The notes under the pieces are model-generated. The model was not told the DNA's origin. It saw only the letters and a list, made by a program, of their open reading frames with translations, and did not search any database. A DNA stretch of 63,815 nt, counting the filler, from Kipferlia bialata (Eukaryota): the NCBI GenBank assembly GCA_003568945.1. It is 4 parts of 4 records of this genome, joined end to end, with 100 filler letters (N's around TTAATTAATTAA, not from the genome) between each part and the next. Parts side by side here need not be neighbours in the genome. Positions count along the whole stretch, not along the records: positions 33,525 to 50,173 come from BDIP01000587.1; 3 more parts are not named here. One strand, written 5' to 3'. The translations under genes were made by a program, and so were the position numbers. Positions 25,301 through 63,815 of this stretch are shown one piece after another; position 1 is the stretch's first letter; every line of letters begins with the position of its first letter.

Positions 25301-28300
25301 ATCCTGCACCTTGTGGAGGAATGGAGTGGGGCCACCGGCTCCGACCACCCCCTGTGTGGCCATGTGTGTGACTATGCTCTGTGCCAGTCGTCACTGGAGG
25401 AGGTGTTCCTCAGACTCAGCCACTCACAGCATAGCAGGGTACATGGGGATGCACCGAAGCCCGACCCCCAAAGGGATTCCTTTGGCCTCTTGCATCCTTC
25501 TACACGGAAGCCTGCGACAGTGTCAGATGTGACATCTGATACTGTGAGAGAGGCAGTTAGAGAGTCCGAGGAGAGCTCGTTTGTGGCTCGCAATGACCCT
25601 TGGGGCAGTAGTGTGTCCCACTCTGACGACCGGTGGGTGAGTGAGAGTGGGGACGGCAACACCAAGACCACGCACCCTGACACAATGAGTGCACAGGAGG
25701 TGGACAGGGTGCTGCGCCCACCTACCAAGACTCCGCGAGTATTCAGAGGGCTACTGAGTAAGATGCTTGCATTGGAGCGTACCCAGTCTTCCCTTGGTGT
25801 TCTGGGTGTATTTGGGATGCCGTGTATCCTAATGGGTGTCTGTTTCCTGCTGATAGCCCTTGTCCTACCTACGGTCATCTCTATAGCCGAAGAGCAGCTG
25901 GACTCAGTGCTAGAGACGGCCCAGGTCATGTGTGACCTCTGCAACACACTTAGTACACGTAGTGAGCTATCCCTAGACTCCTATGTGGAGCCCTGCTACG
26001 GGTGGGACGGGATGGGCCGGCACTACATCTGCACCCAGCTGGAAGAGTACAATGGGGAGGAGATGGACCCGGGGGTGCTGTGGGTTGCCAACCCCGACCA
26101 GGCTATGTTCAATGCCTACCATGCACCCACGTGGGTGGTGCCCTGGGATCTGACAGGGGGTATGCACGGGAGCCTGCCACCAAACAACACGGTCCTGGCC
26201 ACATATGACCAGCCCCTACTCGACTACAACGGAGACCCTATGAGGGAGGAGACAGATGCTGTAGACAGCATGGTCAGAGACTGGTGGTCCCTGTCCCCAG
26301 ACTACTCCAACCCATACTATGTCCCACAGACTGGGGTCTTCAACTCGTTCAGACTGCCTGTCTCCGAGACCATGAGGTACTCTGACATCAGCACGGTGGA
26401 GGAGACCAGCCTAGTGTTCGCCATGCACCTCACCCCCCCAACCTTTGAGGGCCATCCTTTTACCTCAGAGGAGGAGCTGGCTGGGTGGCTGTTCTGGTGG
26501 CAGACGCAGGACAGGAGCACAAGTGTGTCCACTCACCAGTTTGACATGAACGTCAGGAGTGATGCACAGCTCTTAGTCAATGCAATGATACCGTCTGCGT
26601 CCATCACCATACCCGAGGACCAGGTCCCCGGGTCCCCTTCTCTGACACCCACCATTGCATCCTACTTGCCGCCTAGCCCAGGGTTGCACCCCTACCAGCG
26701 AGTGAGCCTAGGTGTGAGATGGAATGAGATCACAGATTTCACTGATTCCATTGGAATCAGCATTGACGGCCTAGACTCTCTCCTTACGGACAAGACTAAG
26801 TTCTCCCCCCCACCTAGTCAGGCGCAGCGGCTGTTTGCCCTACCAGATGTGGTGTTCCCCAATGCCATATCCAACTCGATGTACTCTGTGCTACACACCG
26901 AGTTGGCCCAGTCTACCATCCGGTCAGAGCTGGGCCTTACCCAGGACGAGGTCAACATCAGAGTGGGGATGAAGCCCTTCCCGTACACGTGGGGCTTCAT
27001 CGCCAAGTCAGCCGAGAGTCGACTCGAAGGGTTCATCTCTGTAACGTTCCTGATGATCACCATCTTTGCTCTCATACCATCCCACACATACGGTCCCGTG
27101 CTGGAGAGAATGCAGGGAGTGCGGGCAGCCTACCGTCTCAATGGCGTCAACTCGGTACAGTACTGGACCTCCCTTCTGCTGTACAACGTTGCCCTGTCTC
27201 TCTCTGTCCATGCCTTCCTGTACGTGATAGGGTACCATGTGCTGGACATGAGATACTTCACCAGACAGGGCCTGGTTGTGATGGCACCTGTCCTTGCCTG
27301 CAGTGCCCTCAGCACCGTGTGTGTGGGCCTCTTCATCTCAGTCTTCTTCAAGTCAACCAAGGTGGCCTCTCTGTTTGGGTATGTCTACTCGATGGGTATC
27401 GTCGTGTTCATCTGGCTGATGGTCGAGTCCCCAGCTGATGTCTTAGAGGACGAGGTCAGATGGTGGTACAGGCTAGGACCCTCAGTGTCGATGGCTGTCC
27501 TGATGTTCTACATCTCCAACAGAGCATTCGACCGCTGGGATGACTTTAGAGCGGACCCGATGTCTGACCTCCTTGTTTCCGCAGTCATCCAGTGTGTCGT
27601 CGTGTTCCTATTGACTGTACTCATTGACTCTCTCATGTCTCGCAGTACTTCGTTTAGGTCTCTATCTAAGCGTCTGTTCCGCAAGTGCCACCAGGACCAG
27701 TCACAGGTAGTTGTGCAAGAGACTGTGGGTCAGGGGACTCTAGATAGACAGGTGTCCCTAGACGCCCCCCACCTTCCTGTCCCTGAGAACGATGTGCCGC
27801 AACTGCGCCGTCTCATGATCCCCCCTGTGTCTGTCGACCTGACGCCTATGCCAAGTAGATCCTCTAAGGAGGCCGGGACTGCTCGTGAATTGGCCCTCAG
27901 GTCCTGTGACTCTATGATGGATGCTGACGTGCGTGCTGAGCGTGTACAGATGGCCTCTGGTCTGGAACCAGACACACCAGTCGTGGTGAGTAACGTGCAG
28001 AAATTCTATCCCCCTAGGTTCACTGCCGTGAGAGATGTGGCATTCCACATTCCGCAATCGAGTTGTTTTGCACTGCTTGGGCCGAACGGTGCCGGAAAGA
28101 GTACCACTATCGATATGTTGACCGGCAACACACATATGACCAGCGGCTCTGCCTGTATTCTCGGCCATGACGTCGGGACCGAGACTAGCGCTGTACATAA
28201 GTGTCTGGGGTATTGTCCCCAGCACGATGTATTTGTGCCCACTCTCACTGTGCGGCAGCACCTGGAGCTGTTCTGTCGTCTAAGGGGGGTCCAGAGGGAT

Positions 28301-29002
28301 GATGAGAAGGCGGTGTCGGAACGCCTTGCGGGCTTTGTCCAGTTAGACCCAGCCATTGACACCCAGGCCATGCGTCTGTCTGGGGGCATGAGGCGCCGGC
28401 TGTCTCTGGCCCTGGCTTTGATAGGGGCACCTCCCATTGTGGTCCTGGACGAACCCTCCACCGGGTTGGACCCCTTTACCAAGAGGGCGGTGTGGCAGAC
28501 AATCGACGCTGCCAAGGCGGGCAAGGCAATGCTGCTAACCACTCACTCTACCGAGGAGGCCAGTGCCTTGGCCCAAAGGATAGGCATCATGGTGGCTGGT
28601 CAGATGCGGTGCATAGGAACAGGGCAGCACCTCAAGAGGAAGTTTGGGTCTGGGTTCACTCTGAGAGTCCTGCACAGAGAGGGGTACCCTGTTGACACAC
28701 TGACAGAGCTGGTGGTGGGTGCCTGTCCCGCTGCTAGACTGACCCACAGTGACCCACAGCCTGTCGGGCACTGCGTCCTCAGTCGCTATGCCATACCGGG
28801 GGGCAGCCGGATAGGGCCCCTCTTCCAGACAATGCTGACAGCCAGAGACAGGGAGTCGAGAGAGAGAGAAGGCGACACCGCCGAGGATACCATGGTGGCT
28901 GAGTTCAGTGTAGACTTCTCCAGTCTGGAGCAGGTCATGCTGAAGGTGTGTGTTGCGGCAGAGCCCCCAGAGGAAGATGTCTTAGAGATGCTGCAGCTGT
29001 GA
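21935..29002 (+). CDS. Full-size ABC transporter, subfamily A (TMD-NBD-TMD-NBD); 5' exons uncertain
   Basis: NBD1 has Walker A GHNGCGKT in a small exon (~24200-24259), signature YSGGM and Walker B IVCDEPT. NBD2 has GPNGAGKST, LSGGM, VVLDEPS and TTHS. ABCA motifs GxCPQ(H), LKRxxGSG and SLEEVF are present, with two hydrophobic TM blocks. The last exon runs ~24423-29002. Confidence 0.95.
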
Positions 29003-33524: not shown

Positions 33525-36500
33525 TATACTGTATATATATACTGTGGTCACACAGCAGAGGGCAGTCATAGCGGTGAGTATGTATATGTATATATATATA
33601 TGTATATGTGTACATATGTATGTATATATGTATCTGTATATATATACTGTGGTCACACAGCAGAGGGCAGTCATAGCGGTGAGTTTCACAATTGTATCAG
33701 GATCAATATCAGTGTTAGTACCACGCACCCAGACCCACGCACATATCTATATATATCTATGTGTTCGTGTTCGTGGTATCATTGTATTTCCTCACCCCCA
33801 GGACCTGCGGTCTGCTGTGTCTGACCTCCCATCTATACTTTACATACACACACACATATATATATATACCTCTTTGTGTATATATACTATATCTAATGCT
33901 AACCAACTAGGACCTGCGGTCTGCTGTCTCCGACCTGACCCTGTCCCTATCGACAAAGGAGACAGAGAACAGGGGGCTGAGAAAGCAGGTAGGGGTTATG
34001 TGGTAGTATGTATATATTAATATATAGAGAGAGACAGAGGAAGCAGGTACATGTATATGAGTATGTATCTCTGCATATACATATAGCGACAGAGAACAGG
34101 GCACTCAGGAAGCAGGTGGGGAGCGTGGTATATACACATATATATAGAGAGAGAGACAGGGAGAGGTAGAGACACAGATTATAGTACTCAGGAAGCCGGT
34201 GCGGAGTGTCCCAATGACTGACATGGTATTCTTCATATGTGTTTGTATGTGTTTGTATGTGTTTGTATGTGTTTGTATGTGTTTGTATGTGTTTGGATGT
34301 GTATATGAGTGATTGTGTTCCTCCTCATCCCCAGCTGTCCCTTGTGACTGACATGATATATGTACTGATTGTATTATATGTATATATGAGTATGAGTATG
34401 TATGTATGTAAGTTTTGAGTTGTATCCCTTACCCCAGCTCTCTCTGGTCACAGACATGAGGAGTGCCCTACAGACAGTGCAGGAGGGGTGAGTGGATATA
34501 TGTAAATACATGCATGCATACCTATCAGTATCAGTATATATATATATATATAACCCCAACTCCACCACAATACACATCGTATCTGGCCTATCAGTATCAA
34601 TTTATTCATCTATAGTCAGTATACAAGTATGCATATATATGCACGTATCCATAGTCTCACCCCAGCTCCACCACCATCCTGTCCGGTCTGTCAGCCGAGG
34701 GCAGGGATGAGAGGGAGAGGGAGAGGGAGAGAGAGAGAGAGACGTGGCAGCAGGAGAGGGCCAAGCTGCTGGCAGTAATTGATAGTCAGGTATGCTCTTA
34801 TATACATAGTCTACCGCGTATACCCTCTCTCTATCACAATATTACCTGGTGTAGTCATTCATAGTCAGGTACGGGGTGTGTGCCATTATGTGAAGCATCT
34901 TCAGTACATATATGAATATGCAATCTTGTACATCTCCAACTCTCCCCCTCTCCCTCCCTTCTCTATCTAACCGTTCAGACCACCCTAGTCTCCACCCTAA
35001 CTACCCAGGCAGAGGAGAGAGAGAGGGTCAGAGAGGCAGGGCAGGTGTGTATGTGTATGTGTATAGATATATATATAGAGAGAGAGGGGGGGGGGGTCAG
35101 AGAGGCAGGGTAGGTACAAGAAGATGGTATATCGCAGCTGCATTTGATACTCTTGATACTGATACTGATAACTCTATTCCAATGCCTCTTACAGATAGGA
35201 CCAAGCTGAGCTTGAGAGATATATACAGACACACACACACACATATATATATATAGAGTTACACTAACTCAATTGTTCTATTGACCTTATTCTAATGAAT
35301 AGGACCAGGCTGAGCTTGAGAGGGGTCTGGCCCTGGCAGCAGAGTACACAAGGATGATGCAGGTTGGTGTATGTATATGTATATATATATGTTGCAATTA
35401 TAATGTAGATATATGACTGGTGTTTTTCTATATATATGAATGGCAGCAGAGGACAGTATCATATATATACACATGATGACATGATGTAGGTTGGTGAGTG
35501 GGTATATAGTTGATACTCTTTTCCTTTTTGTACTAGGTATCATTGTTATACATCTAGTAATCACTCCAGGAAGACGCCGAGAAGGAGAGAGAGAAGGAGG
35601 AAGAGAAGGAGAGAGAGAAGGAGAGACAGGAGCAGCTTGAGAGAGAGAGAGAGCAGGCTATTGAGGTGGAGAGGGAGAGAGAGGCTGAGATGCAAAGAGA
35701 GACAGAGGGTGAGAGCCTGACCCTGTTATCTAGGGATAGACCCCCATCTATTAGTGTAGAGGGTGAGGGGCATGAGAGTGAGGGTGAGGGAGAGGGGGAG
35801 GATGGGAGTGAGAGTGACTCTGGACTGGATGAGTGTGCTGAGGTGGAGATAGAAGAGGGGGAGGGAGAGGGGGAGAGAGAGATGGATGATATGGAGCCAA
35901 AGGTGAGTGTGGCGTGATGACTCTATATACTCATTGTTGGTATGGATATTTTTACTCTGCTGTGATATTCTCCCCTCCCTCTCTCTACCTCACCCACAGC
36001 TCTCGCCACCGTCCCCTACAATACTCTCTCTCTCTCTCTCTCTGTGTCTCTAACTCCAGCTGAGCCCTCTGGTCACCGTCCCAACCCCTCCCAATCTAAT
36101 CTCTCTCTCTCTGTCTCTCTCTCTCTCTAACTCTAGCTCTCCCCTCTTGCCACTGTCCCCTCCCCCCACCCCCAGTCCCAGACACAATACGGACAGGGGG
36201 AGAGGGAGAGAGAGAGAGAGTACCCCCAGATGGAGAGGAGGAGGCAGGGGGATAGGGCCACCGTGATTGACTCACCTGAGACATCCATCAACATGCTCAG
36301 AAGCATAGGTATGGCTATATTTGTAGTCTTTGTTTGTGTTTAGGTATCAGTTATATATGTATGTGTCTCACCGCCAGGCCTGCTGGTGTCAGACGAGCCC
36401 GACAGCACTCTGCTGGACTCCAACAGTGGCAGTGAGGCAGAGGGAGAGAGGGAGAGGGAGAGGGGGAGACAGCAGCCCCGCCCCCACCGTCTGAATGTGA

Positions 36501-36878: not shown

Positions 36879-37254
36879 TGTTTTTGAGAGACTAGGGATC
36901 TAGTTTGGCTAGAATAGGGGGGGGGGGGCTTCTGTGTTACAGACACCCTTCTATTGCTGATGGAGTGTTTGTATGAGTGTAGTATTTGTGTGTTTGTGTT
37001 GTCAGGGAGTGTAATAGACACTGAGGAAGTGTTTTGGGCCGCGTACAGTCACATAATTAAGCGATTGGAAGAGTTCAATTAGCGGTCATGACACACCCGA
37101 AGAGATACCTGCAACCGACTCAACAGTATGGAGTATTGGAAGCTCTCACTTGCATCCCCAGACAGTGTTTTTCCGTTGTCACTGTAATTGATGCCATCTC
37201 ATTGTCTCGGATATGACAGCAACATGACTAACTCTCTTACAACCCCATACTCAG

Positions 37255-40200
37255 ATGCCGGTAGGTGACCCAGTGGTAAGACCACTGGTTGTTCCTTCCC
37301 AGCCGCTGCTGTTGCCCAGAGATGAGACAGGACAACGTCTCTTAGGGACTGTGTATGACACCGTACCCTGTATTGTTCAACTTGATACAGGAGAGGTTCT
37401 CATGTCTGGTGGGTCTAGCAGTGATACCGTCTCGGATATTGCAGTATCAAGATCGGTGGGAGGCCTTGTAAGGTGCCAATTGGTTGATGCGGCGTCCACT
37501 AGTTCCACTATTGGGTATGTACGAGTACAGTGTGACTTACAGGACAGCGTGTATCGGGTGGATGTCTTAGAAGATGATGCAGAAGGATTAGCTGTCTACA
37601 GCTTAGCCAGACCCAGGAGAGGTCTTGAGTACCAATGGGTGTTGCACAAGACATCTATTACCTCTGCTTCTCTGCCTCTCGTGACGCATGCATGCTCCCT
37701 CTTCTCTCTTGGATCCAGTCTGGTGCTGGTAGGGGGAGGGCCAAACACTGATGGTGCGACATCTGATGCGTTCTGTTATGCTGTAGACACATCACTGTTC
37801 CATGACACATCCGATCAGCCACCCCAGTGGAGACAACGGGTCCCACCCCCTGTACGGGTAGAGTATGCGGGCTGTGTCGTAGTTGGATCCACCGCCCATC
37901 TACTAGGCGGGGTCACCAACAGGATGCACCTGACCTTCAGTCTAGACGGAGGGTGGGAGAGACTACCAGATATGCCACTCTCAGCAGTGTCTCCAGGTGT
38001 GTTGTCAGTTGGGGGGTACCTAGTGGTGATAGGGGGTCAGGGGCATGAAGGGCAGATACACGTGTATGAGAGAGAGACCTGTCTGTGGACCAAGGTGAAT
38101 GACGCAGGGTCCCGGGTCAGCCTGGTGAAGGCCTGTATGCTAGACGATACAACAGGTATATGACTCTGCATTTACCAACCAGTGGATACAGTTGTTAGAT
38201 ACATGAGAGGTATTGAATATCCAACTCAATTGAATCCTGACTACTTTGAGAACATTTGTTTGTTTCTCACAGCAGCTGTTGTGCACGGCACAGGGGGAAC
38301 AGTGACTCTCGATACCACATGGAAGTGTAGGATGGGACAAGCCATAGCTAGAGAGAGAGCAAGGAGGGTCCTGTCACTTCGTGTACCACTCTCTCCCCAA
38401 CATCCTGTCAGAGCTGCGCTACCCGTGCCAGTTACACACGTTGGTTGCATATTTCTGAACAGGGACAGAACTGGAGTATCTCTTCTGCTCAATTGTCAGA
38501 GAAGGCGTGAAGATGATACTGTGGTCCTCTCCCTAATGCAGGAGCAACTTCCACCTCATAGTCAACCACCATACACACAACTGATGACCATACTCCTGAG
38601 GAGTGGCTTTGGGGCCACACCACCACCTTCCGTCACACGATCCCTGCAGGCCACACAGCCTGTCACATCAGGACATCGCGTCATCTACAGTAGTCAGGCG
38701 ACAGCTTGGGTGGTTACTAGACTGACATCTATTCCCTCAGTGCCACATAAGACACATACCAACACCAGCCTGCAGTGGGTGTCGTTGGAGTCCCTTAGGG
38801 AGGTGGTATTGGGAAGCAGGGCGTCAACCACCAGCAGCATAGAGACATGGTCTGTGTATGGGACAAGCACTGCTAGAGTGAGCCAGTCTCTCTCCACCTG
38901 TATCCGTGACCCAACGGTCAGAGAGTGTCTCTCCAGAATCGGTCAGATATGTCCTATTACGTCACTGATTGATAAGGCAGCAGATCACATGTCTCATGTG
39001 ATTGGGACTGCTATGTCGGAAGCTAGAGAGATAGTATCCCTATCTCGTGACGAACTAGTTGTGCGGCTGTATGGTCCCAAGTGGACCCTTTCCCTGGCAG
39101 TGCCCGTCGTACCCCCACGTCCTCTGCTGCAGACAGTCACACCAGGTAGTATCCGGTACAGAGACATTGTAGCTTGCCTGCCAGAATGGCATCAGCAGAT
39201 ATATGGTGTCAGGGCTGTCATTGTTCCAGCTAGACAGGCAGTCTTTGAGCAGCAAAAACGACAGCTTACTGCTAACGGTGAGCTTCTTGGTGTGTATGAC
39301 CCCCTCTACCATGGTACTCCTGACGTGTGGAGGGCGACACAGATAGCACTGCATGGGTTTGATCGGTCTAAGGTTGTGCGTGGTAGTGGTATGTACACAA
39401 CAACTGATGTGAACACTGCACTAAGTTACACCCAGGGGTCCATACGTCCTAATACGTACGGATCTCTCACTATCCTCAAGGGACTACAGACAAATGATGT
39501 GGAACATGATAGTGCCACTATTCACATATTCCAAGACCCCGCAAACCTCCTATGTGTAGCCACCATCGACTTTGGAGAGGACACCTCCAACACAGACGCA
39601 GAGGAAGAGGCTGCGAGGGAGAGACTGATGCAGCACCAAAGGGAAATTGAGAGGGTAAACGAAGCAATAATGGCAGCTGAGAGACAGTTCAGAGTCAAGA
39701 CTATGCATCGTATGCGTGTTGCAACTGCGGGATACCTGTCAGTACTGGGCTCTCTACAAGACAGGCTCTCTTCAAACACTGTCCCACTCTCAGCAAGTGA
39801 GTTTGCTTCTATTAAGACGGCATTCATTAATGAGAAGAGTCAGTATGGGGGACACTTACCAATCTTCAACGACAAGACTGAAATCGTGAACAGGCTACGT
39901 ACTCACGACGTACTGCTTCTACACGCTCCCACTGGGACAGGCAAGAGCACACACCTACCCCAGTACATAGTAGATGAGGTGCTACCAGATGAGACTAGAC
40001 CAGTGGCCGTTCTCCAGCCAAAGCGTGTCAACTGTACCTCACTTGCATCCTATATAGCCACACAGAGAGGCACCCGGGTAGGTGGAGGGGTAGGATACAG
40101 ACTGGGAGGGGGTGTGCACAGAGTGAGTGAGCATACTCGCATTGAGTTTGTCACACATGGACTGTTTGCAAGACTGGCTCTGCATGGAGATATAGTGTCT

Positions 40201-43200
40201 CGTTACTGTGCTGTAATCGTAGATGAGGCACATGTAGAGGGGAGTGACGTGAATGAGTGCCTTGCTGCTCTAAGGAATGCTATGCGTGTCAATCACACAT
40301 CGCATTCCACTAGCACCTTCAAGGTGGTGGTTTGCAGTGCAACTCTCCTTCCTCAGAAACAAGAGACACTAGCCCATTATCTCTGTGGGGACGCTGTCAC
40401 TTACTCCTCTCTTTCCGTTACTGCAGCGGCATTTCCAGTTCACACAATATACCGGGATATACCGGATGTTCCAAGTGATGACACAGAGAGGGGTGGTATG
40501 ATGAATGACTCTCTTATGACTGCCACTGTAGAGTCGGCCCTTCAGTTTCTGTCAATTTCCGACACGGGAAGTGTCTTGGTATTCTTGCCAGGTGCCAAAG
40601 CACTCACAGATGCCATGCACTGTATAGTGGGCTTCATGGACAGTGACCCAGAGACCGAGGTAGGAGCATCTGGACTACGGTTTCAGATTGGAGATACTCG
40701 CATTGGTGTGCTGCCATTCCATGGAACACAGAGCAGGGAGGAGCGAGACATTGTCCTTCGCTACACATCCCACGGTTTGGACAGGGTAGTAGTCCTTGCC
40801 ACCAACCTTGCTGAGACGGGACTGACCATACCTGACATCCGGTGTGTCGTTGACACAGGACTGGAGAGAGTGGTGTCATGGGATACAGAGAGAAGGTGCG
40901 AGGTAATGACACTACAGTATGCCTCTGCGTCCAGTCTCGACCAGCGTAGGGGGAGGGCCGGTCGGACTGGCTCCGGTGTTTGTATACGTCTGTACTCGGA
41001 AGACACATACCACTCCACCACAAAGAGTATGGCCATGCAATGCAACCCAGAGGGTACTTGTCTTAGACAGCTAGCCATGCTGGATAACAGTAAGAGGTGG
41101 GAATTTCTCCATCCGATACCTGATAGGGACAGAGGCTATGCCTTAGATGTCCTAAAGAGAGTAGGAGCAGTCTCGCTTGATGGGCACATCACTCCCGCTG
41201 GTTCCCTGTTTGTGGCACTGGGTGTGTCTGCTAGAGTGGGTGCATTCCTATTAGAGTGTGACAACAGTGGGTGTCTGTGTAGTGGGTGTGTCATTGCTGC
41301 AGTCCTGACTGCTGGATCTCTGACTTTGCCACTCACTGTCCACAACCAGGAGTCCCCCCTGAACATGTACGTTCACCCAACTGGAGATCATCTCACCCTG
41401 CTGCAGCTGTATAATGCATACACAGGGGAGGTCAACAAACACCAGTGGTGCATTGATATTGGAATTGACATTGCACACTTTGCTTCGACACAGAGGGTGT
41501 TTGATGGGATGGTCAACACTCTGACCCACCATGGATACTCTGTTGCAGACAGCGATACCCTGTTAGAAGACACTGAGGAGTGTCACTGCCTTCTGCTCAA
41601 AGCACTCCGTGCAGCGTTTGCAGACCAACTGGCAACAGTAGGACCCACGCAATACTCCTTGCACCAGCTGACTCTCACGAGTCTGGGGGTCACCCTGTCC
41701 AGAGCTACGGTGTCCCTCACCAATACGTCAGTCCTATATGATTCAGTCTTCATCCATACTCAGTGCATCATGGTGTATCACTCCCGTCAACACCTAGACA
41801 CGATGGATGGACCTAGGGTGAGCATTGTGTCATACGTTCCAGACACCAGAGTCGCTGATGGACACACTACTGACTGGACACTTCCAACTCAACATGAGGA
41901 CGTAGAGTCCACTGAGTTGCTTGTAGAGAAGATACTTCTTCCAAAGAACCTAACGCAAATGTCAAGAAGACTGAGACGTATGGACCAGCAGATAACCATC
42001 ACTCAGCCGTCTGTTGCAAGTCGGTCCCACGCTGCACCTGAAGCAGAGGTAAAGGTGAGACTAACGGCACCAACTCACGCCTTTGTTGCAGCACATGACA
42101 GATTCTGGGACATAGTGTCAGAGAGTGTTACAGAGCATGTCAGCATTGCCGTTCCTAGGGGTCAGAACATGCAGAGGCTGGACACAGGACTGCAAGGCTT
42201 GGCCCGTCAAGTACAGGAGGAGTTACAGACCCTTAGGCAGGAGACTCACGGTTGGATCCTTAGACTGGACAGAGCACATTACAGAGTGGTGATGTCTTTA
42301 GGAGGTCCCGGCAAGTGTCACCTTCCATCGTACATAGCAAGGGTCAAGGAGTTAGTCAGAAGCAATGGAGGTATGTAGTATGACTCTATACAAAGCATAT
42401 GTCAGCCACCAACTATTTCCCAATTCTTCCACACTATTTCTTGTATCATTATACAATGACTCTGTCAAAGGTACTCGCGTCCACTCACTATAGGACTCAG
42501 GCAGGTGGTGTTGAATGTGCCAGGCTTCTCCGTCTCGACCCCTCTCGAGGCCGCTAACCCTCGACTACTGCAGCTGCTGAGACCTACACCACCTTCTACA
42601 CGGCACATGGATAGAGACCGTGCCATGTTGTGTCTAGCTCACCATCTAATCTGGCACTGTGACTGCAAGCTGTACGGAGGGTTTGTGAGAGACTATGTGG
42701 TAAGAGGGGAGCGAGCCCATGACCTGGATGCCCTGCTTCCTAGAGGGCAGGGTAGTTTAGAGGAGACTGGAGAGAGTGTCTCAAGCTCCCTAAGACAGTA
42801 CGCAGAAAGTATCAGCCTTGGTAGCTGCGATGTCCATACACAACGACACATCTACCGCCTGACCTTCCATTTCGCAGCAGGTGATATCACTGTAGAATTA
42901 GTCGACCCCTCTCTTCCAACACCCTCCCCTCATGCTGACTCGTCTCCTGGAAACATTGCCATATGTAGAGCAGGATTACAAAAGAAGAGCAACGCTGGAG
43001 GTGCCATCGTTCCTCTGTCGGCCTGTTTGGCCCACACACACGCCAAGCAGTTTGTGTGCTTTCTGGATTTTGACAACAGAGACAACAGACACAACTTGCA
43101 ACAGAGAGTGGTTAACAAGTATCTCAGTAGAGGGTGGGCCTTACTCAACAAGCTACCCCAACGCCAGATGCAAGAGCTTAGACAGAATCAGCATTATGAG

Positions 43201-43266
43201 GAATGGTCACAGCGCGGCCAGTTTGCCTTTGTATCTAGGTTCAACAAAGACTGGAAGAATGTTTAG
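37255..43266 (+). CDS. ~1923-aa multidomain protein: kelch-like propeller + degenerate NUDIX-like + PARP-type ADP-ribosyltransferase + DEAH-box RNA helicase + class II (CCA/polyA-pol-like) nucleotidyltransferase
   Basis: Exons 37255-38155, 38273-42370 and 42494-43266 join in frame via two phase-1 GT-AG introns (5772 nt). Motifs: LVLVGG/LLGG/VVIGG (kelch); LYHGT..GSGMYTT..ALSY (ART); APTGTGKST, QPKRV, DEAH, SAT, FLPG, ATNLAETGLT, QRRGRAGR (helicase); LYGGFVRDY..HDLD..VELVD (NTase). Confidence 0.88.
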
Positions 43267-43653
43267 TTCTGTGGACATTGCTAGTAGTGGTTTGGATAAA
43301 AGGCATATCCACTTACAGGTGGTAACCAATTGTGGCTGCCAGACAGCAAGTATTGTCTACGTTACAGTTAGATAGATGTGTCATGCCAATTGCTTTGGTA
43401 CTTGTTTCGTAAATAGTGATGGTTGTACCATTCAACCAACTGCATCTTAACACTTCTCATGCGCTGGCATAGCCAGCCTGGCTAGATCGTTGCATATATG
43501 CCACTTGCTCGTGTATTCTGCTATCTCAAGATGAACCCGTATTTGAACCACTGTAGTGCCACTCAAGTTGCCGAATGAAATGCGGGTTTCTTCCGACACT
43601 ATTTCCAAACTTGCCATACACGACTGCTCAATCACGCCCAGGTACATAGGTAC

Positions 43654-45200
43654 ATGTCCATGGACACGAGAGTAGCTGCCTACTGCCGCTCTCCGACTAG
43701 GGCTGTTGTATCCCAGTCTTCCATTGCCAATCAGCATGTCATGACACTTGTCAACAGTGACCATGTCGGCCTCTCAGTCAGCATCCCATGCCATGGGCTA
43801 CGGACTGTGGCTGACATCACTAGGAGACTGGAGCTCTCCGATCCCAAGCACCTCTACACTGTGCTTCTGGACGGTGTTGTCCAGAAGGCCAGTACTCCTA
43901 TCACACAGCTACTGATGTGCTGCGGGGTCTGGGGCTTCAGACGCAGACTCAAGGTGGACCCATCCACCCACTCTGGTCAGGTCCATGTACGTCTCCCATC
44001 TGGTGAGGTTGCTACCCTCGGTGTCTCCCCCAACACAACTGTCGACAGTATCTACAGGCAGCTAGCCCGTACACACGGACACATGTACAAGACCATGCGG
44101 CTGGTACACAATGGGCGCACACTTCGTCCTCACCACTCAGTCTACTACTACACCCAGGGTAGGCGCTGTGTGTTCTCTCTCTCTGCCCCGCTTCGGGGAG
44201 GCAACCCCCTGTCAGTGAGGTTTGTGGATGTGGAGAGGACCGATGACATCCTACCAGGCAGGTTCATTGACGACGCTCCACCTTGGCGTCAGTACTGCAA
44301 CGGGAGTAACCTTGAGGTGTGGGATATCATTTCATTAACACTATGTTTACGTATATACGTTGAGGTTTGATACGTCTTGTCAGAAGCTCTATTTCATTTT
44401 CATTATTCATGGCTAACTGGCAGGGAAAGTGTTCCAACCGCCATTGCGTTGCCTTCCACAAGTGGATTGTCTACAACATTGGGTTTGGCACCTTTGACCT
44501 TGTCCTTGACAATGCCTCCTGCGTGTGTCCCATGTGCCACGAGTATGTGAGACCTCGCACAATCGGGTTCACCAACTGCATCCTCAACATCACAGGTGGG
44601 TTACTGTAAACTACAGCCTGTATCAAAGTACATTACTTGTATCGAGGTGTAGGTGCGTGCTCTCATTACTGAGACATATGCAGGGTCTTACCCCAGGAGT
44701 CAAGACCGCTGCTGGCAACCGTGTACCCACAGCCTTTATTCTTCCCGCCCTATCCGCCAACAGTGACGGATACAAGTACTACGACCCCAAGAAGTCTGGC
44801 ACCTGTCAGTACGACTCACTCATGCTCCGAGCCACTAGACACCAGCCCCTCCCCCTCTGTCTGCTGTGTGGAGAGGCTGTTGAGCAGAGGGAGAGTGCTC
44901 TGTACATGGAGACAGTCGAGTGTAGACAGCACGGACACAAGGTGAGTACATAGGATAATATAGACTGACACTATTCTACACAGAGTGTACTCCTTACCAT
45001 ACCAGATCCATGACAGGTGCCAGGCAGCCTTCCACTCAGCCAACCCTACCCCACACGCAGTACAGGTGCGGGGTCGCTTCTCCGGCCCCAAGGCCTGCGC
45101 TGCCTGTGCCAGGGTGACCTGTGTGAGGAGAGGCAGGAACATAGCTGTGAGGAGGATTGTGGGTGGACTGGAGAGACTGGGACGGTATCTCTTCCACTAG
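43654..45200 (+). CDS. Tandem ubiquitin-like domain protein with internal LRGG, Cys-rich domain and RING-H2-like C-terminus
   Basis: Exons 43654-44316, 44424-44595, 44697-44941 and 45006-45200 splice in frame. Ubl GQVHVRLPSGEVATLGVSPNTTVDSI...MRLVHNGRTL...LRGG (44191-44202); APPWR..GSNLE|GKCSNRHC...CPMC...FTNC; CLLC...CRQHGHK|IHDRC...CAAC. Confidence 0.8.
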
Positions 45201-45399: not shown

Positions 45400-47220
45400 G
45401 GAGTACTGATAATAGTGGCCGGGTGAGACCCTCATACAGTTAGTGATGGTGTCCCCAACTGTTGAACAGATATTGTTCAATATCGGAATTGAACGGATAT
45501 TGTTCAACACAGAGACCTTCCAAATTTTGAAGCCTTGGCAAGGAAGAGATCGTAAAGCACACAGACCTGAGGCTATTAGAAACAGTGATTCCCACCCTCT
45601 GTCCGACTTGACTACTGTACCGCTAGTCCTTGGGACCCTTGGAATGGCACCAATGAGGTGGTTCCTCAGCTGTAGAGAGATCAAAATAGGCTCCGGAGCA
45701 GACATGATACACGAAGTAGCCACCCTCTCTCACAACACTCTTCTGGCTGCTCGGGCAAGTGGGCGTGTAGACAGGTATGGAAGCCCCATCATCACTGATG
45801 TCTTTTCTGACCCTTCGCTATACAAAGAGTGTATTGTGGTAAGTCAAGTAGCATTTAGGAGGAGGAGTTTGTCTAAACACGCTGATCGTGTCTATCCAGT
45901 GCGTAGTCCTCCCACCTTCGGATGGCCACTCCCTCCATAACATCCAGGCTCACTGTAGACCCCACCACTGCGGAAGTCACTGAAGCAACAATGGTGGTTG
46001 GCCCACATCCCGACGAGAGGGACATTGTTCTGTCGACTCTGGTTAGTACCTACACCCAGACAGTTCAAGTAAGTACCACACTGGATATAGATGTACTTCC
46101 AAATGGGGACGAGAACTATTCTCCAACATCACTGCAAGTGCGTGTACTCTACGCTGATACTGGAGAAGTCGTAGAGATTGAGAACACAGGCGAGGGTAAG
46201 AGGCCATCCCCGAGGTTTGGCTGCAGTGTTGGGGTGGTCGATGGGACACTGCTTCTGGTGTCAGGATTCGGGGACACCAGCATAGAGAATTTCCTACCAC
46301 ACCATGATATGTGGTGTCTAGATCTCAGCAGAAATGACCCATCCCTAACATGGTCCCGTCACGTCATACCTCCCAAGGCAGCACGGCTCTTTTGTGTTCC
46401 GAGCCTTCAGCCGCTTAGAACATGCAACACAGGAGATAATCTCCTAGCGTTCAGTGCTTCACGTGTATACTGTCTGTCCAGAAGTGGTCAGGTACGGAGA
46501 GAGAAGGTCACATACGTAGGGACAACCCCTTCAGCTAGATCTATGAGACGTGAATTCATTCCTGTGGATGTGGGCCCGTTTGTGTGCCTCTTTAGACTGG
46601 AGGGTACAGAGGACGAGTAGAATGAAGGTGTATGCCGTATATACATGCATGACAGAGTGTCCGGTGACACCATTCTGGCTGAGCCTCTACCAATCTCCGA
46701 CGGCGTTTGCTCTGCTTGCATGCTCAACCCCACCACCATTGTAGTGGTACAACGTGACAGATATCTGCTGGTAGAGCTAGACCCAGAGCTCTTCAACATA
46801 TACAATGATGTAGACTGAAAGAGGGCAGTAGAGGGAGTTTTCTAGAGTAAGATACAGCTCAAAGATAGTTTTATGTCCATAATTCATTAGAGAACATCGT
46901 GTTTCTTTACAGTTGGAGTTAAGAGAGAAGTGAGCTGTTCTGTTCATTGTACACTCATTTCTATTTGACATTTATGGAATCAGGGGGAATACAACTAGCC
47001 AGATCCTCTACCCAAGCATCTGTTCAACATCCTCATCTGAAAAGAGATCCTCATCCTCCGCGGCCTCTCTGTTCCGCTTCTGTCTCTCTCTCTCCTTTTC
47101 TCTCTCTTGCCTCTCCCTCTCGCGGGTCTGCTTCGTCTGCCTCTCCTTCTCGATCTCCTTCTCTCTCTCCCTCTCTCCCTTTGTGCCCCTCTCCTTTCTC
47201 TCTTTCGCTGCAGCTGCCTT
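45400..47220 (+). repeat. Segmental duplication unit B (kelch-like gene plus last exon of a convergent gene); second copy ~47882-49695
   Basis: Collinear high similarity from gagtactg...gtgagaccctca..agttagtgatgg through the kelch CDS, its 3' region and the antisense ...EDEDLFSDEDVEQMLG exon. Confidence 0.92.
45644..46818 (+). pseudogene. Kelch-like beta-propeller gene, copy 1, probably pseudogenised
   Basis: MAPMRWFLSCREIKIG..., PSPRFGCSVGVVDGTLLLVSG, SACMLNPTT..LLVELDP. In-frame TAG at 46618-46620 where the paralogue has GAG, and TAG at 45904-45906 where the paralogue has TTG. Confidence 0.75.
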
Positions 47221-48131: not shown

Positions 48132-49287
48132 ATGGCACCGATGAGGTGGTTCCTTAACTGTAGAGAGATCAGAATCGGAACCGAAGAAGACCCGATAATC
48201 GAAGTAGCTACACTCTCCCACAACACTATTCTGGCTGCAAGGGCAAGTGGGCGGGTTGACAGGTATTTAGAGGCTTTTTCGACCATTTGTTGAACAAAGA
48301 ATGTATTAGTGGTGATTTCTGTAACATTGCAGAGGTTATGTTTGTCTAAACACGCTGACCACGTCTGTACAGTGCCTTGTCCTCACTCTTTCGGATGGCC
48401 ACTCCATAACATCCAGGCTCACTGTAGACCCAACAACTGCAGAGGTCACTGAGGCTACAATAGTGGTTGGCCCACAAGTCGACGAGAGGTGTATTGTTCT
48501 GTCGTGTCTGGTTAGTACCTACACCCAGATAGTACAAGTAAGTACCACTCTGAATCTAGAGGCACCAAATGAGAACGAGAGATATACTCCAACACCGCTG
48601 GAAGTGCGTGTATTCTACGCTGACACTGGAGACATCGTAGAGATTGAGAACACTGGGGACGGTCGGTGGCCATCGCCAAGGCTTGGTAGCAGTATTGGGG
48701 TTATAAATGGGACCCTGCTTCTGGTGTCAGGATTCACTCCCACCAACATGAGAGAGAATATTCAACCACACCGTGACATTTGGTCTCTACATATCAACAG
48801 AGATGACCCACACGTAACATGGCACCCTCGTGTCATACCTCCCAAGGCAGTTCGGGGTTTTTGTACTAGGAGGTTTCAGCCACTTAGAACATGTAACACA
48901 GGACATAATCTCCTAGTGTTTAGGGCTTCACGAGCATACTGCCTGTCCAGAAGTGGCCAGTTACGAAGAGAAAAGGTCACATATGTTGGGACAGCCCCTG
49001 CAGCTAGATCTCAGAGACGTGAATTCATTCCGGTGGATGTGGGCCCATACATCTGCCTCTTTAGACTGGAGGAACTACTTGACGAAGAGATACAAGGTGT
49101 TTTACGTGTATACATGTATGACAAAGTGTCCGGTGACACCATTCTGGCTGATCCTCTACCAATCTCCGGTAGCGTATACTCTGCCTGCATGCTCAACCCC
49201 ACCACCATGGTAGTGGTACAACGTGACAGATATCTGCTGGTAGAGCTAGACCCAGAGCTATTCAACTTATACACCGATGCAGACTGA
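48132..49287 (+). CDS. Kelch-like beta-propeller gene, copy 2 (exons ~48132-48262, ~48373-49287; possible 4-bp deletion near 48404)
   Basis: WPSPRLGSSIGVINGTLLLVSG, YMYDKVSGD and SACMLNPTT motifs. The obvious splice is out of frame unless the 4 bp (ctcc) present in copy 1 are restored or another donor is used. Confidence 0.7.
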
Positions 49288-54918: not shown

Positions 54919-56193
54919 ATGTCAGCCATCATGTCTGGACAGAATATGATATATATGACCCGACCACCCTTACTAACACATAGGCATATGTCTCGAATAC
55001 TAGACCATATGAGTGAAGAATTAGGGGAAGACTGGGTAATTCCAACCTTGGTATTGCCCATAACAGCGTTCCTCGTCCTATTCGTTTTCATTGAGTGTGT
55101 AAGACATACACCGTACTTCCCATTTCCTGAGTCGACGACACAGGTCGATTATTCAGCGAAGGAGGCTGGCATTCGTGGGACCCCACTGTGTGAGAGTGAC
55201 TGGACTACCCATTCCAGAGTCCGTATGCAGCACTGCATCTTGGAGTGTCCCTGGGCTGGTCTACACACTGACATTGTCTACATTGGCCCACTTGACTCAG
55301 GTGGTGGCATTCCTGACTGCTTTCATCCCACAGAGAAGTATGAAGCACTGGTGATATCGACTTGGAGGGACAGCATAACCTGTAGAGTTGTGAGAGTCGA
55401 GCCAGTCACAAGAGAGGTGATTGTAGGAGATGAGATGGAGACACCTCTTTCCTCATATATGGGGGGTATGACTATTACTCGTGTAGGCGACGTAGTTATC
55501 CTCTTTGGCGGCGAATGCCCTGTTGGACCATGGGACGGGCCGTGATCGGCAGAGACTCGACACCTGGACACCCTCTTCTCCTTTGACATTCCCACTAGGG
55601 AGTGGCAGGCCATAGAGCGCAAGGGTGATTGGCCTTGCCAAAGATCATTCAGTGACTCATTTGCAATAGGGGGGAAGGTCCACGTGTTATACGGGCTGGT
55701 GTCCAATGTCTTAACTGGAGGAGTCCAGTCAGTGTATGACCACTGGGTGTATACACCTACCACACAGGACTGGCAGAGGATCAGCAACACACCATTCAGA
55801 TTTCCCAATGGCGGGGTAGTTATTAGGGACGTGTACCACTTGGTAGCTAGCACGAAGACTGAACATGGAGAGGAGAGATATGAGTGGCTTTGGACCTTCA
55901 CGGAGGGCGTTGGGTGGGAGAGGTGCCGGGAGCCTCTCAGGGAAGATATGGTACCTTCCCTTGGCCACACACTCCGTCTGAGAGGTACTGACCTGTGTCA
56001 CCCGGGTGATGTTGGAGTGGTGCACCTCTTTGACACTGTGAGTGAGACCTGGAGGGAGTCAGTTGCAGAGCAGGGCAACCCCACCGATAGGATTATGGTG
56101 AAGACAATGGTGGCCCCTTGCACCTCTCTCTCTCTGCAATACTCAGGTGATGGGGTAGAGAGCTCTACAGAGTGGAAGGAGTACGAGTGTTAG
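54919..56193 (+). pseudogene. Intronless kelch-like gene interrupted by an in-frame TGA (55543-55545)
   Basis: ORFs 54919-55545 and 55684-56193 share a frame. Reading through gives RVGDVVILFGG..*..LFSFDIPTREW..DWPCQRS..AIGGKVHVLYG..YTPTTQDW. Confidence 0.7.
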
Positions 56194-61496: not shown

Positions 61497-62143
61497 AGAG
61501 AGTAGCTCTTCTCTTTGGCAGGGCTACGGTGTATCGACACCCGACAAGGGATAACCAGGGGGCGGTGTTCCTCGAAATGCCGAGCGGTCACTGCGAAGTG
61601 TCCCATCCCCTCTTCCAGCTCCTGAAGAGGACTGGTTTCCACGTCAACGGCATCAAGAACATACCCGACTGGCTCCTGTCTATTTCTGTCGAGTCCAAGA
61701 GGCACTTTGTCGCCGGATGCATAGAGTCTGACGGAACCATTGAGCCCCCCGAGGGCCAGCACCGCACAACTAGTGGGAAATTCGCTAATACTAACTACCA
61801 GTTCGTGATTCCCTTCAGGCGCATTGCGGCTAGTCTTGGATACGGTGTACGTACGACTCTACATGTTCCCAAGAGTGAGAAGAGCAGTCCCGTTTACAAG
61901 GTTGGCATCACCCATCGTACCCTGTTGGGGGAGCTTCAAGACATCTGGAGGCTCCACCACAAGAATGAGGTAATAACTCTCCCTAGTCAGAAGGCAAACT
62001 CTCTATTGAGTGAGGGTGTAAGCGTTCTCCCCCTTGAGGGTCTCCGCCAGGGTCGGTCATTCACTTTCCTTGAGAGAGGTGACCCATACTTCGTCACACC
62101 TATGGGCTATGTGATGAAGGCGATGGAGGTAGAATAGATTTAT
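61497..62143 (+). mobile_element. 647-bp insertion flanked by a 6-bp direct repeat TGCACT (61491-61496 and 62144-62149)
   Basis: Removing the insert and one TGCACT restores the antisense kelch reading frame. The insert lacks microsatellites and introns. Confidence 0.8.
61499..62137 (+). CDS. 5'-truncated intein-type (DOD) LAGLIDADG homing endonuclease with degenerate Hint C-terminal blocks
   Basis: KNIPDWLLSISVESKRHFVAGCIESDGTI (block D/E), FANTNYQFVIPFRRIAASLG (block H) and GDPYFVTPMGYVMKAMEVE* (block F/G-like, no His-Asn). The frame is open from the insert boundary. Confidence 0.8.
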   Translation, partial: RVALLFGRATVYRHPTRDNQGAVFLEMPSGHCEVSHPLFQLLKRTGFHVNGIKNIPDWLLSISVESKRHFVAGCIESDGTIEPPEGQHRTTSGKFANTNYQFVIPFRRIAASLGYGVRTTLHVPKSEKSSPVYKVGITHRTLLGELQDIWRLHHKNEVITLPSQKANSLLSEGVSVLPLEGLRQGRSFTFLERGDPYFVTPMGYVMKAMEVE

Positions 62144-63815
62144 TGCACTGCCCATGTCCCTGCCCGACCCACACTCTCGGGCATATCCTCTGACCTCCAC
62201 TGACCCTTGCCCCCAAGCACATCGGGTGTGTACCACAGGTGTCTGTGGTCTGCGAGGATATGCAGTGCATTGTGGGTAGAGGCCACGACGTACTGGTCCC
62301 TCTTCATGGCCTTCGTCCCGCTGAAGCAGTTGGTGTGCCGTATCTTGGCCCTCCCCACCCACTGCTCTGTCTCAGGTATATACTCTTTGACGCGGGTGGG
62401 TGTGTGCTGATCACCGACACACACTAGAAACAGGGCATCCCCAACTGTCACTAGGTGGGTACGCTTCAGACTGTCAAAGGGTATGTCCATACCATGGCCA
62501 CGCAGGATGCCAGGCTTGGGGAGCTCAGTCCAGGGGGGAGGCAGACAGACTGGACAGACACACACACGTCTTGGCCGATAGTGACGACTTACATATTCGT
62601 AGTCATAGTTATAGAATTCCTCATCAGAACACTTCGGAGCATCTTTGGCATCCGCGACCTTTTTCTGGTATTCAGGCAGCCTACCCATATCCAGTGAATG
62701 CACGACAAACTGGAACTCGTCTCTAGAGGCGGGGTCTGACCTGGAAGGGAAGGCGGGACTGAGAGAGGGAGAGAGAGAGGGGGGGGGATTACCTACTGCC
62801 CAGGAGGATGTAGAGGTGACCCCCCAGCCTGGCCACGCTCTTGTTCAACCTAACCCACCACTCAGGGAGAGCGATACTCGACGGTGCCTTGTCTATCTCC
62901 CGGTTATTCACGATATACAGCTGGGGTCAGAGAGCCAAGCCGATACTTCACTGCTGATCTGGTCTCTTGGATACCTCTGCCTTGTCGGCCCACAGGCTGT
63001 CCCCTAGTCCTATGGAGGAGAGGGGTGTGGCATCTATCAGGGCAGGGTGGGGTCGGGGGAGAGAGGTGACACGGAGGAAGGGAGCCCTGTCTGGGGTCAG
63101 AGAGAGAGAGAGAGAGAGAGAGAGATACTGGGAGAGAGTCAGTGACGCTGGAACAAGCAGAGAGACCCAGAGGGGGAGGGATAAAGGGAAGGGGGGGGGG
63201 GGGGTAGGAGGGGTAAGAGAAAGTGTCACTGCTAGTCCAGAGGGATGTTGCGCCATTTCCAAGATACAGACATAGTCTCTTGCGTCACCACATCAGTTCA
63301 TCTGGGGGCTAACTAGAGGGATCCAACCCGTACCTGTACTACCCATGGGACACAAGGGGTTGTGGGTGAAGCATATATGCTTGGCCTTGTTCCTTATAGA
63401 GTGCTTGAAGCCTAGGAGGTGGAAGCCTTTGGAACTGGAAAACCTAGAGGGTAAGTGATGGGAGACAGATATAGAGAGAAAAAGGGAAGAGTCCAATACA
63501 ACCACACATCCATACATATTAGCAGAATGTGTTGACGCGAAAGAGACCAAAGAGCACTGCTCGAGAGGTAGATACGCAGACACCAGGAGCGGTGGGCAGA
63601 ATAGACCACCACACAGAGGAAAGACACACCCAGCATGTATTCTAATCTACATACATATAGTGCTGTGCGTGTATCATAGTGTCACTGTGTCATGGGGGGT
63701 TACAAACAAGGATAGACGTAGAGAGAGAGAGAGAACTCTGTGGGAAACGGAAATGTGCATGGGAGGGGGAGAGGGGGTGGGGGGGGGGGGGGGGGGGGGG
63801 GAAGGGGGAGGAAGA

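Follow-up and report, generated by a model that had tools for sequence, protein, structure and literature searches.

The stretch between positions 37255 and 43266 of the DNA analysed here raises two questions: whether three open reading frames (ORFs) that are listed separately belong to one protein, and what a protein of such composition would do. The DNA, referred to as the window, comprises 63,815 nucleotides, filler included, from four records of the genome of the free-living flagellate Kipferlia bialata (GenBank assembly GCA_003568945.1), and the locus lies in the part from BDIP01000587.1. A first-pass annotation had proposed a single chain with kelch-like, NUDIX-like, ADP-ribosyltransferase (ART), DEAH helicase and nucleotidyltransferase (NTase) domains and had regarded it as a candidate RNA-sensing defence effector. 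As judged from its sequence, the protein combines a helicase of the DEAH/RHA type with a PARP-like mono-ART and an NTase of class II fold, and the predicted catalytic residues of all three are kept in this copy. We put at roughly 45% the probability that it is a one-chain RNA-surveillance machine that would unwind, tail and ADP-ribosylate its target, probably in defence against viruses or other selfish RNA.

A predicted class II-type nucleotidyltransferase at the C-terminus

The last exon of the predicted gene, exon 3, carries the motifs GGFVRD (42676) and DLD (42721), and its carboxylates are D1742, D1744 and E1800 (D76, D78 and E134 in the numbering of exon 3). R65 and D66 are present in all 113 aligned rows, D76 in 112 and D78 in 111, while the third carboxylate is Asp in 100 rows and Glu, as here, in 11. 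An AlphaFold2 model of exon 3 from an alignment of 83 sequences reached a predicted local distance difference test (pLDDT) score of 93 and a predicted template modelling score (pTM) of 0.89; it was used in place of a single-sequence fold with a pLDDT of 41. The model matches CCA-adding enzymes with Z scores of 10.3-10.4 over about 170 aligned residues at a root-mean-square deviation (rmsd) of 3.7-4.2 (top match 3h37: Z 10.4, rmsd 3.9, 170 aligned, model range 17-241). Bacterial poly(A) polymerase (Z 9.3) and TENT5B (Z 8.7) follow. Motifs, third carboxylate and fold thus bear out the class II assignment that had been proposed. The analogy with OAS and cGAS drawn at the same time has lost ground, because class II enzymes score better, with alignments of about 170 residues compared with roughly 100 for CdnG, a CD-NTase (Z 6.9, 92 aligned), and OAS2 (Z 6.1, 102 aligned), which match in the core only. 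On the modelled fold, kinship with OAS/cGAS appears unlikely, and Z scores of 6.1-6.9 over the core make signal synthesis somewhat less probable.

The domain consists of a head and a helical neck and lacks the body and tail of CCA-type enzymes. The protein ends 37 residues past the profile core, and 114 of 124 relatives end at most 80 residues past it (median 31.5 residues). CCA-adding enzymes possess an RRD motif for reading ribose and an EDxxR motif for templating. Neither is among the conserved columns of the NTase in the sequence alignment, where the family has PGVDCDVGN and xRLxKY.

By language-model features, the Atlas clusters nearest to an NTase of the family are viral (score 0.95, 171-172 shared features), and 21-38% of the members of these clusters carry the Pfam label Gad2 (PF26128). 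Gad2 is described, in the accessible part of the source, as a phage anti-Gabija protein and predicted nucleotidyltransferase (bioRxiv 10.1101/2023.05.01.538930). The Pfam scan of the Kipferlia protein, with a Pfam set that may not include this model, gave no Gad2 match. A Foldseek search of the NTase in BFVD found a Tupanvirus protein at E 3.9e-7 and a total of 60 matches at E <= 0.001, and phrog_1614 is matched by 13 of 35 family members.

The viral clusters with their share of Gad2 labels lend some weight to the foremost of the alternatives, which we nevertheless consider unlikely: an RNA-sensing helicase would switch on the NTase, and the latter would nucleotidylate a protein or ADP-ribose, or make a diffusible nucleotide signal, instead of an RNA tail. 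The same idea gains from NTase records that carry an ART or WWE domain but no helicase (P0091, P0006, P0026 and P0001), according to which ADP-ribose domains are the steadiest partners of the NTase. However, these records may be fragments, the Gad2 label is found on less than half of the cluster members, and the best solved fold matches are RNA 3'-end polymerases, with CdnG and OAS2 restricted to the core.

An apparently undescribed protist family

A full-library search with exon 3 returned 147 relatives, 81 of them at E <= 1e-10, and an NTase profile built here matches 146 of the 147. Word-indexed homolog searches were nearly blind: exon 3 gave no match, the ART region matched its own annotated record only, and P0010 gave two matches. 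Thirty-four relatives have at least 900 residues before the NTase. An ADP-ribose-related domain is present in 32 of these and a helicase in 31; the 30 proteins with both fall into type A, (Macro)-(NUDIX)-ART-DEAH-(KH)-NTase, with 22 members, and type B, DEAH-RING/IBR-ART-WWE-NTase, with eight, counts that are partly circular since the profiles were built from the proteins counted. Pfam independently places Macro, NUDIX, PARP, WWE, IBR and KH domains at the same positions in the relatives, and the ART domains of the two types match each other. A metagenome locus, L001, encodes NUDIX-ART-helicase-KH-NTase as one intronless ORF of 2,058 codons; its sequence is identical to that of L007.

Among 30 of the 147 relatives that were looked up, 15 were named proteins, from 10 organisms: Kipferlia (four proteins), Aphanomyces stellatus (both types), Lagenidium, Pedospumella, Paulinella, Chilomastix, Carpediemonas and three 'Eukaryota sp.' isolates, which we take to be metamonads. 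The carriers comprise fornicates, oomycetes, a chrysophyte and a cercozoan, and none of the 15 bears an animal, plant or fungal name. While the architecture was thus found in metamonads and other protists, pattern scans of low sensitivity detected family members in none of 47 candidates from viral contigs and in none of nine from prokaryote genomes, and tblastn, equally of low sensitivity, found none in annotated phages.

A quick NTase tree was calculated from the 119 rows that cover 140 or more profile positions, with two duplicates excluded. The five Kipferlia NTases, a copy number taken from protein records, form one clade with a support of 95 in the Shimodaira-Hasegawa-like approximate likelihood ratio test (SH-aLRT). 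Types A and B interleave, with 10 changes of which only two are forced by strong branches. Further partners of the NTase (in P0001, P0069, P0056, P0032, P0129, P0114, P0091 and P0150) are an ART tail, a protein kinase, RRM, cold-shock and LRR domains, microbial PARG with WWE, PARP with UIM, and CCCH fingers. The ART tail occurs without a helicase in Kipferlia P0001, and the CCCH fingers stand at the N-terminus of a type B protein from Paulinella. Family genes also occur in local clusters: a type A gene lies head to head with a WWE-NTase gene (L007:3-7020), two NTase genes lie tail to tail (L004:3-3603), and two lie in tandem (L013:2-4740).

No description of the ART-helicase-NTase combination was found in full-text literature, including the accessible parts of PMC9503650, PMC11646218 and PMC8195603, subscription papers for the most part and supplements lying outside the search. 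We regard the proteins as a real protist family that is apparently undescribed; it is possible that a figure or table of domain architectures has mentioned them before. The first-pass annotation had not recognised this combination in one polypeptide. That remains so for the literature, but the Kipferlia protein is not a one-off, with 22 of the 147 relatives and the L001 ORF sharing the arrangement.

ADP-ribosyltransferase and helicase cores

The ART contains LYHGT (39304), GSGMY (39382) and ALSY (39418) and keeps 27 of 33 conserved columns. H646, Y674 and Y685 line up with PARP10 and with 21 relatives, and after the second Tyr no Glu is conserved in the 22 aligned type A sequences, the register being read from the alignment. 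Together with the profile score (Table 1), these features support the ART core without catalytic Glu that had been predicted. The best PDB matches are to PARP10, at an E value of only 0.3. Pfam has no match in the ART or exon 3 of this Kipferlia copy; it does match PARP in four type A relatives, and the same region of the relative P0029 resembles PARP clusters in Atlas (0.96). The donor loop is four residues shorter than in the relatives.

The helicase shows motifs I, II, III, V and VI where they had been read before (GTGKST 39934, DEAH 40222, SAT 40336, QRRGRAGR 40942), and 81 of 95 conserved columns are kept. It matches Prp43 (E 8e-51), with an alignment that reaches exon-2 residue 1130. HA2 is weak here (Pfam HA2_N E 0.04, HA2_C E 0.13) and stronger in the relatives. 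DEAHER of the relatives reads DEAHVE in this copy, so that Glu takes the place of the DEAHxR Arg that 21 of 21 relatives possess. Since several relatives diverge equally, the divergence of the helicase lies within the range of the family. The KH-like region that follows is without the GxxG loop seen in relatives, and Pfam finds KH in P0010 and P0028.

A known housekeeping DEAH ortholog, the identity that the first-pass annotation had named as a possible refutation, was rejected: the helicase falls below all NCBIfam cut-offs, and spliceosomal helicases and HrpA all match at E 1e-51 to 1e-32. The protein as a whole could still serve in end repair or quality control of cellular tRNA, rRNA and snRNA, with no special link to invaders. 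Such a role is second among the alternatives and also unlikely in our view. It would agree with catalytic motifs that are strongly conserved across distant protists and with closest folds that belong to tRNA-maturation enzymes, and ARTs and NTases both work in RNA repair according to the accessible part of PMC9503650. It fits poorly with the patchy named range, the expansion in Kipferlia, the variable accessory domains and a helicase that is far from the spliceosomal and HrpA/B models.

Gene model, reading frame and splicing

Between ATG 37255 and TAG 43264-66 on the plus strand, one frame contains no more than four stops (38161, 42376, 42457 and 43264), whereas the two remaining frames contain 109 and 117 over 37255-43266. 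The first three stops all lie inside two GT..AG gaps with a GC content of 0.36-0.38 (exons, 0.51-0.54), and apart from these AT-rich gaps 5.77 kb are free of stops and frameshifts. It is likely that the three ORFs form one predicted chain of 1,922 residues, for which intron 1 is shown and intron 2 predicted. In-frame splicing as proposed earlier therefore stands, except that the first acceptor is 38275 instead of 38272 and the chain is 1,922 instead of 1,923 residues long.

A single contig (depth 3.1) of run X2, which is recorded as 'RNA?', skips intron 1, and the DNA run X1 has no joint at this position. Readthrough of the stop codon in the first gap is ruled out by the RNA joint. Note that, within the gene, the X2 contigs span the intron 1 joint only and that missing cover elsewhere carries no evidence. 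The public K. bialata model KIPB_003168 (P0151, 1,618 aa) is 100% identical, corresponds to model residues 50-1666 and shares the intron 1 junction. It ends at 42378, at a stop inside intron 2, and so is without the last domain. Of the two premature transcript ends that had been considered, 38163 and 42378, the latter is where the public model stops.

For intron 2, a junction profile derived exclusively from relatives was used to score 34 splice pairs without stops together with the unspliced sequence, 35 readings in all. The pair 42370^42494 ranks second with 104.6 bits (top 106.4, unspliced 98.0). The pair 42375^42500, which scores 1.8 bits above the chosen one, was rejected; across the window its donor GTAGTA occurs 41 times with 55 expected and so shows no enrichment. 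With 42370^42494 the junction is collinear with the paralog P0002, apart from a single one-residue gap, and aligns through in P0003 as well. Two RNA-proven introns nearby end in CTCACAGCAG and CTCACCGCCAG, and intron 2 ends in CTCACTATAG. The splice signal was assessed by a motif count across the window: CTVAC with a spacing of two or three bases to YAG was counted 43 and 45 times, compared with 21 and 22 expected from 30 shuffles (maxima 32 and 30), and the other seven branch-to-AG spacings are not enriched. According to the accessible parts of two sources, Kipferlia bialata has 124,912 GU-AG introns (PMC5874029), and diplomonads likewise fuse the branch point with the 3' site (PMC6679479). 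Splice signals, the collinear paralog and the intronless relative at L001 thus argue for intron 2 as predicted.

The public model and the lack of an RNA joint at intron 2 also permit another view, in which the family is real and the present copy is split or in decay: intron 2 would remain unspliced, the helicase part would end at 42378, and exon 3 would be silent or a separate small gene. Decay in the NUDIX, KH and ART-loop regions and the short Kipferlia NTase models P0001 and P0003 point the same way. Against it stand the long open frame outside the two gaps, the intact NTase carboxylates, a canonical donor, the branch-AG spacing of RNA-proven introns and the collinear junction in P0002 and P0003, and we hold it to be the least probable of the readings considered here.

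In the region upstream of the gene (37088-37254), a pyrimidine-rich stretch that ends in CTCAG directly precedes ATG 37255. A GTATGG donor is located at 37126, downstream of ATG 37088, and its joining to the CTCAG site would be out of frame. A 5' intron or an upstream ORF may occupy this region, which leaves the N-terminus uncertain. The gene upstream contains an RNA-proven intron of 69 nt at 36309-36377 (GTATGG...CTCACCGCCAG).

Table 1 Features of the predicted gene, with positions counted along the window
Feature	Position	Strand	Remarks
Exon 1	37255..38155	+	300 codons; start uncertain: first ATG 37255 or annotated Met 37402
Kelch-like propeller	~37663-38112	+	Pfam Kelch_6 E 2.7e-8, above cut-off
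Intron 1	38156..38275	+	120 nt, GTATAT...CTCACAGCAG; in-frame stop 38161; skipped in RNA-type contig
Exon 2	38276..42370	+	NUDIX remnant, ART, DEAH helicase, HA2/OB, KH-like region; open frame
Decayed NUDIX remnant	38443..38802	+	No Nudix box; two fragments, family order
PARP-like ART	39127..39588	+	H646 (HGT), Y674, Y685; 119.5 bits against relatives-only profile
DEAH/RHA helicase	39862..41844	+	RecA1-RecA2 39862-41001, then HA2/OB; Pfam DEAD and Helicase_C
KH-like region	41974..42357	+	14 bits against a shuffle maximum of 1.7; precedes NTase
Intron 2 (inferred)	42371..42493	+	123 nt, GTATGT...CTCACTATAG, GC 0.38; stops 42376 and 42457
Exon 3	42494..43266	+	Class II-type nucleotidyltransferase, head and neck only

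Kelch propeller and NUDIX remnant

The kelch-like propeller of the first-pass annotation is present in exon 1 but does not belong to the family at large: none of 77 scanned relatives has one, and the kelch part matches its own record only. By these comparisons, the kelch N-terminus is specific to this Kipferlia copy and not a family component. Divergent kelch-like genes lie elsewhere in the window, at 45907-46620, 48325-49287 (+), 55546-56193 (+) and 62140-62844 (-). Those at 45907 and 48325 look like close paralogs by eye, and Pfam kelch matches were obtained for 45907 and 55546 only. These genes are a likely source pool for the kelch N-terminus.

The 'NUDIX-like' domain did not hold up beyond a positional remnant. 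It scores 0.8 bits against the profile of the relatives, below the maximum of 200 shuffles (1.2), and keeps two of 10 conserved columns. The Nudix box has the consensus G-x5-E-x7-RE-x2-EE-x-G. A pattern for the box was found in 14 of 22 relatives and not in the Kipferlia protein, and Pfam matches NUDIX in relatives at the place of the remnant. With the box lost, NUDIX activity of this copy has become less likely.

Other features of the window

In the gene downstream (43579-44950, +), domains resembling ubiquitin (Pfam ubiquitin E 0.003) precede a Cys-rich region that is split by apparent introns and has no Pfam match. Short stretches at 45644-45691 and 45925-45965 have further copies in the genome. 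In three X1 contigs, a position near 45683 is joined to one at about 45925-45943, and in other copies about 250 nt are therefore missing or different. An ORF at 61499-62137 (+) has a weak LAGLIDADG-like match (E 0.0077) and is possibly a homing endonuclease or intein remnant within the nuclear genome of a protist. At 22850-29002 (+), an ABCA-type transporter is encoded in an open frame of 1,532 codons within a GC-rich block (0.56-0.60), which is unusual for this intron-rich genome.

Discussion

How would a one-chain RNA-surveillance machine work? DEAH helicases load on a 3' single strand and translocate. The helicase and the KH-like region would load on the single-stranded 3' end of a target, move 3'-to-5' and open structure or strip proteins. 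The class II NTase would add untemplated nucleotides at the 3'-OH, providing a landing pad and a decay mark, as in TRAMP or with bacterial poly(A) polymerase. According to the accessible part of PMC11646218, class II enzymes tail RNA to mark it for decay, and their clade includes TENT5, which is also without body and legs. The Glu-less ART would put one ADP-ribose on a phosphorylated RNA end or on a bound protein. PARP10, PARP11 and PARP15 are described as ADP-ribosylating phosphorylated RNA ends, with macrodomains reversing the reaction (PMC6582358, accessible part). In type A relatives, Macro and NUDIX would remove the ADP-ribose mark, and in type B relatives WWE and RING-IBR would read it and ubiquitylate. 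In this Kipferlia copy the eraser has been lost and a kelch propeller acquired, through which a target protein would be recruited. As a result, foreign or faulty RNA would be tagged for destruction.

We infer the defence role from the domain content, the patchy range and the expansion in Kipferlia. The Kipferlia NTase clade, the shuffled architectures and the NTase look-alikes in giant viruses and phages may be read as signs of conflict. Several points weigh against RNA surveillance directed at invaders. PADLOC returned generic helicase matches only, and the strong conservation of motifs also fits housekeeping. As the NTase is without a CCA-type body or tail, RNA as acceptor stays a predicted role, and its nearest Atlas look-alikes are viral Gad2-like proteins. 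The public gene model ends inside intron 2, over which there is no RNA cover. This copy has itself diverged: the Nudix box and the KH GxxG are lost, the donor loop of the ART is shorter, and another residue stands in place of the Arg that follows DEAH. Finally, the range is known from the 15 named proteins.

The two transferases might also act in series. Viral RNA would be sensed via the helicase, the ART would lay ADP-ribose on a target, and the virus-related NTase would extend it with nucleotides; the product would be a hybrid ADP-ribose-nucleotide mark or messenger, erased by Macro/NUDIX and read by WWE/RING-IBR. The near-constant pairing of the NTase with ADP-ribose domains in two helicase frameworks fits this scheme, which we consider quite improbable. 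If it were true, ART and NTase in series would constitute a categorically new kind of protist immune enzyme.

Comparison with known systems places the surveillance reading in context. With class II NTases (CCA-adding enzymes, bacterial poly(A) polymerase, TENT5/FAM46), the family shares GGxVRD...DxD, the third carboxylate and a head-and-neck fold (Z 8.7-10.4 over 170-190 residues), but identity is 8-18%, body and tail are missing, and the NTase is fused to ART and helicase. PARP9/10/14/15 and ZAP/PARP12/13 are antiviral mono-ARTs with ADP-ribose readers. Common to them and the family are an H-Y ART without conserved Glu and, in relatives, Macro, WWE, KH and in one case CCCH fingers; Pfam and family-profile scans found no Macro, WWE or CCCH in this Kipferlia protein. 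To our knowledge, no antiviral PARP carries a DEAH helicase or an NTase. TRAMP consists of Trf4/5, Air1/2 and Mtr4, and its bacterial counterpart is decay by poly(A) polymerase and degradosome. Both couple an untemplated tailing enzyme to a 3'-to-5' helicase, as is predicted for the family. TRAMP, however, has separate subunits, a Ski2-like helicase and a class I polymerase, whereas the family has one chain, a DEAH helicase, a class II enzyme and an additional ART arm. OAS, cGAS and CD-NTases likewise place a Pol-beta-fold NTase beside a putative RNA sensor, but match in the core only, while the family has the class II signature. Phage Gad2 and the class II-like NTases of giant viruses, nearest by language-model features and Foldseek, stand alone. 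The plant proteins DEAH11 and DEAH12 are helicase-RBR proteins with RING1-IBR-RING2 after the helicase. Type B proteins also have KH-like and RING-IBR modules after a DEAH helicase, but they possess RING and IBR without RING2 and continue with ART-WWE-WWE-NTase; Pfam scans found no RING in the type A Kipferlia protein. We class the protein neither as a CCA-adding enzyme nor as a ZAP/PARP14-type protein, TRAMP subunit or helicase-RBR protein. If the surveillance reading holds, it would by analogy work like TRAMP joined to a PARP14-type module set.

Little is known about the antiviral defence of microbial eukaryotes. In one chain, the family unites a writer of ADP-ribose and its readers or erasers with an RNA helicase and a tailing-type enzyme of no established class; it occurs in at least three eukaryotic supergroups, and the public Kipferlia gene model is without the predicted effector domain. 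If the surveillance reading is true, the module set of the interferon-induced PARPs of animals would have been assembled separately in protists, together with an NTase whose nearest look-alikes are viral.

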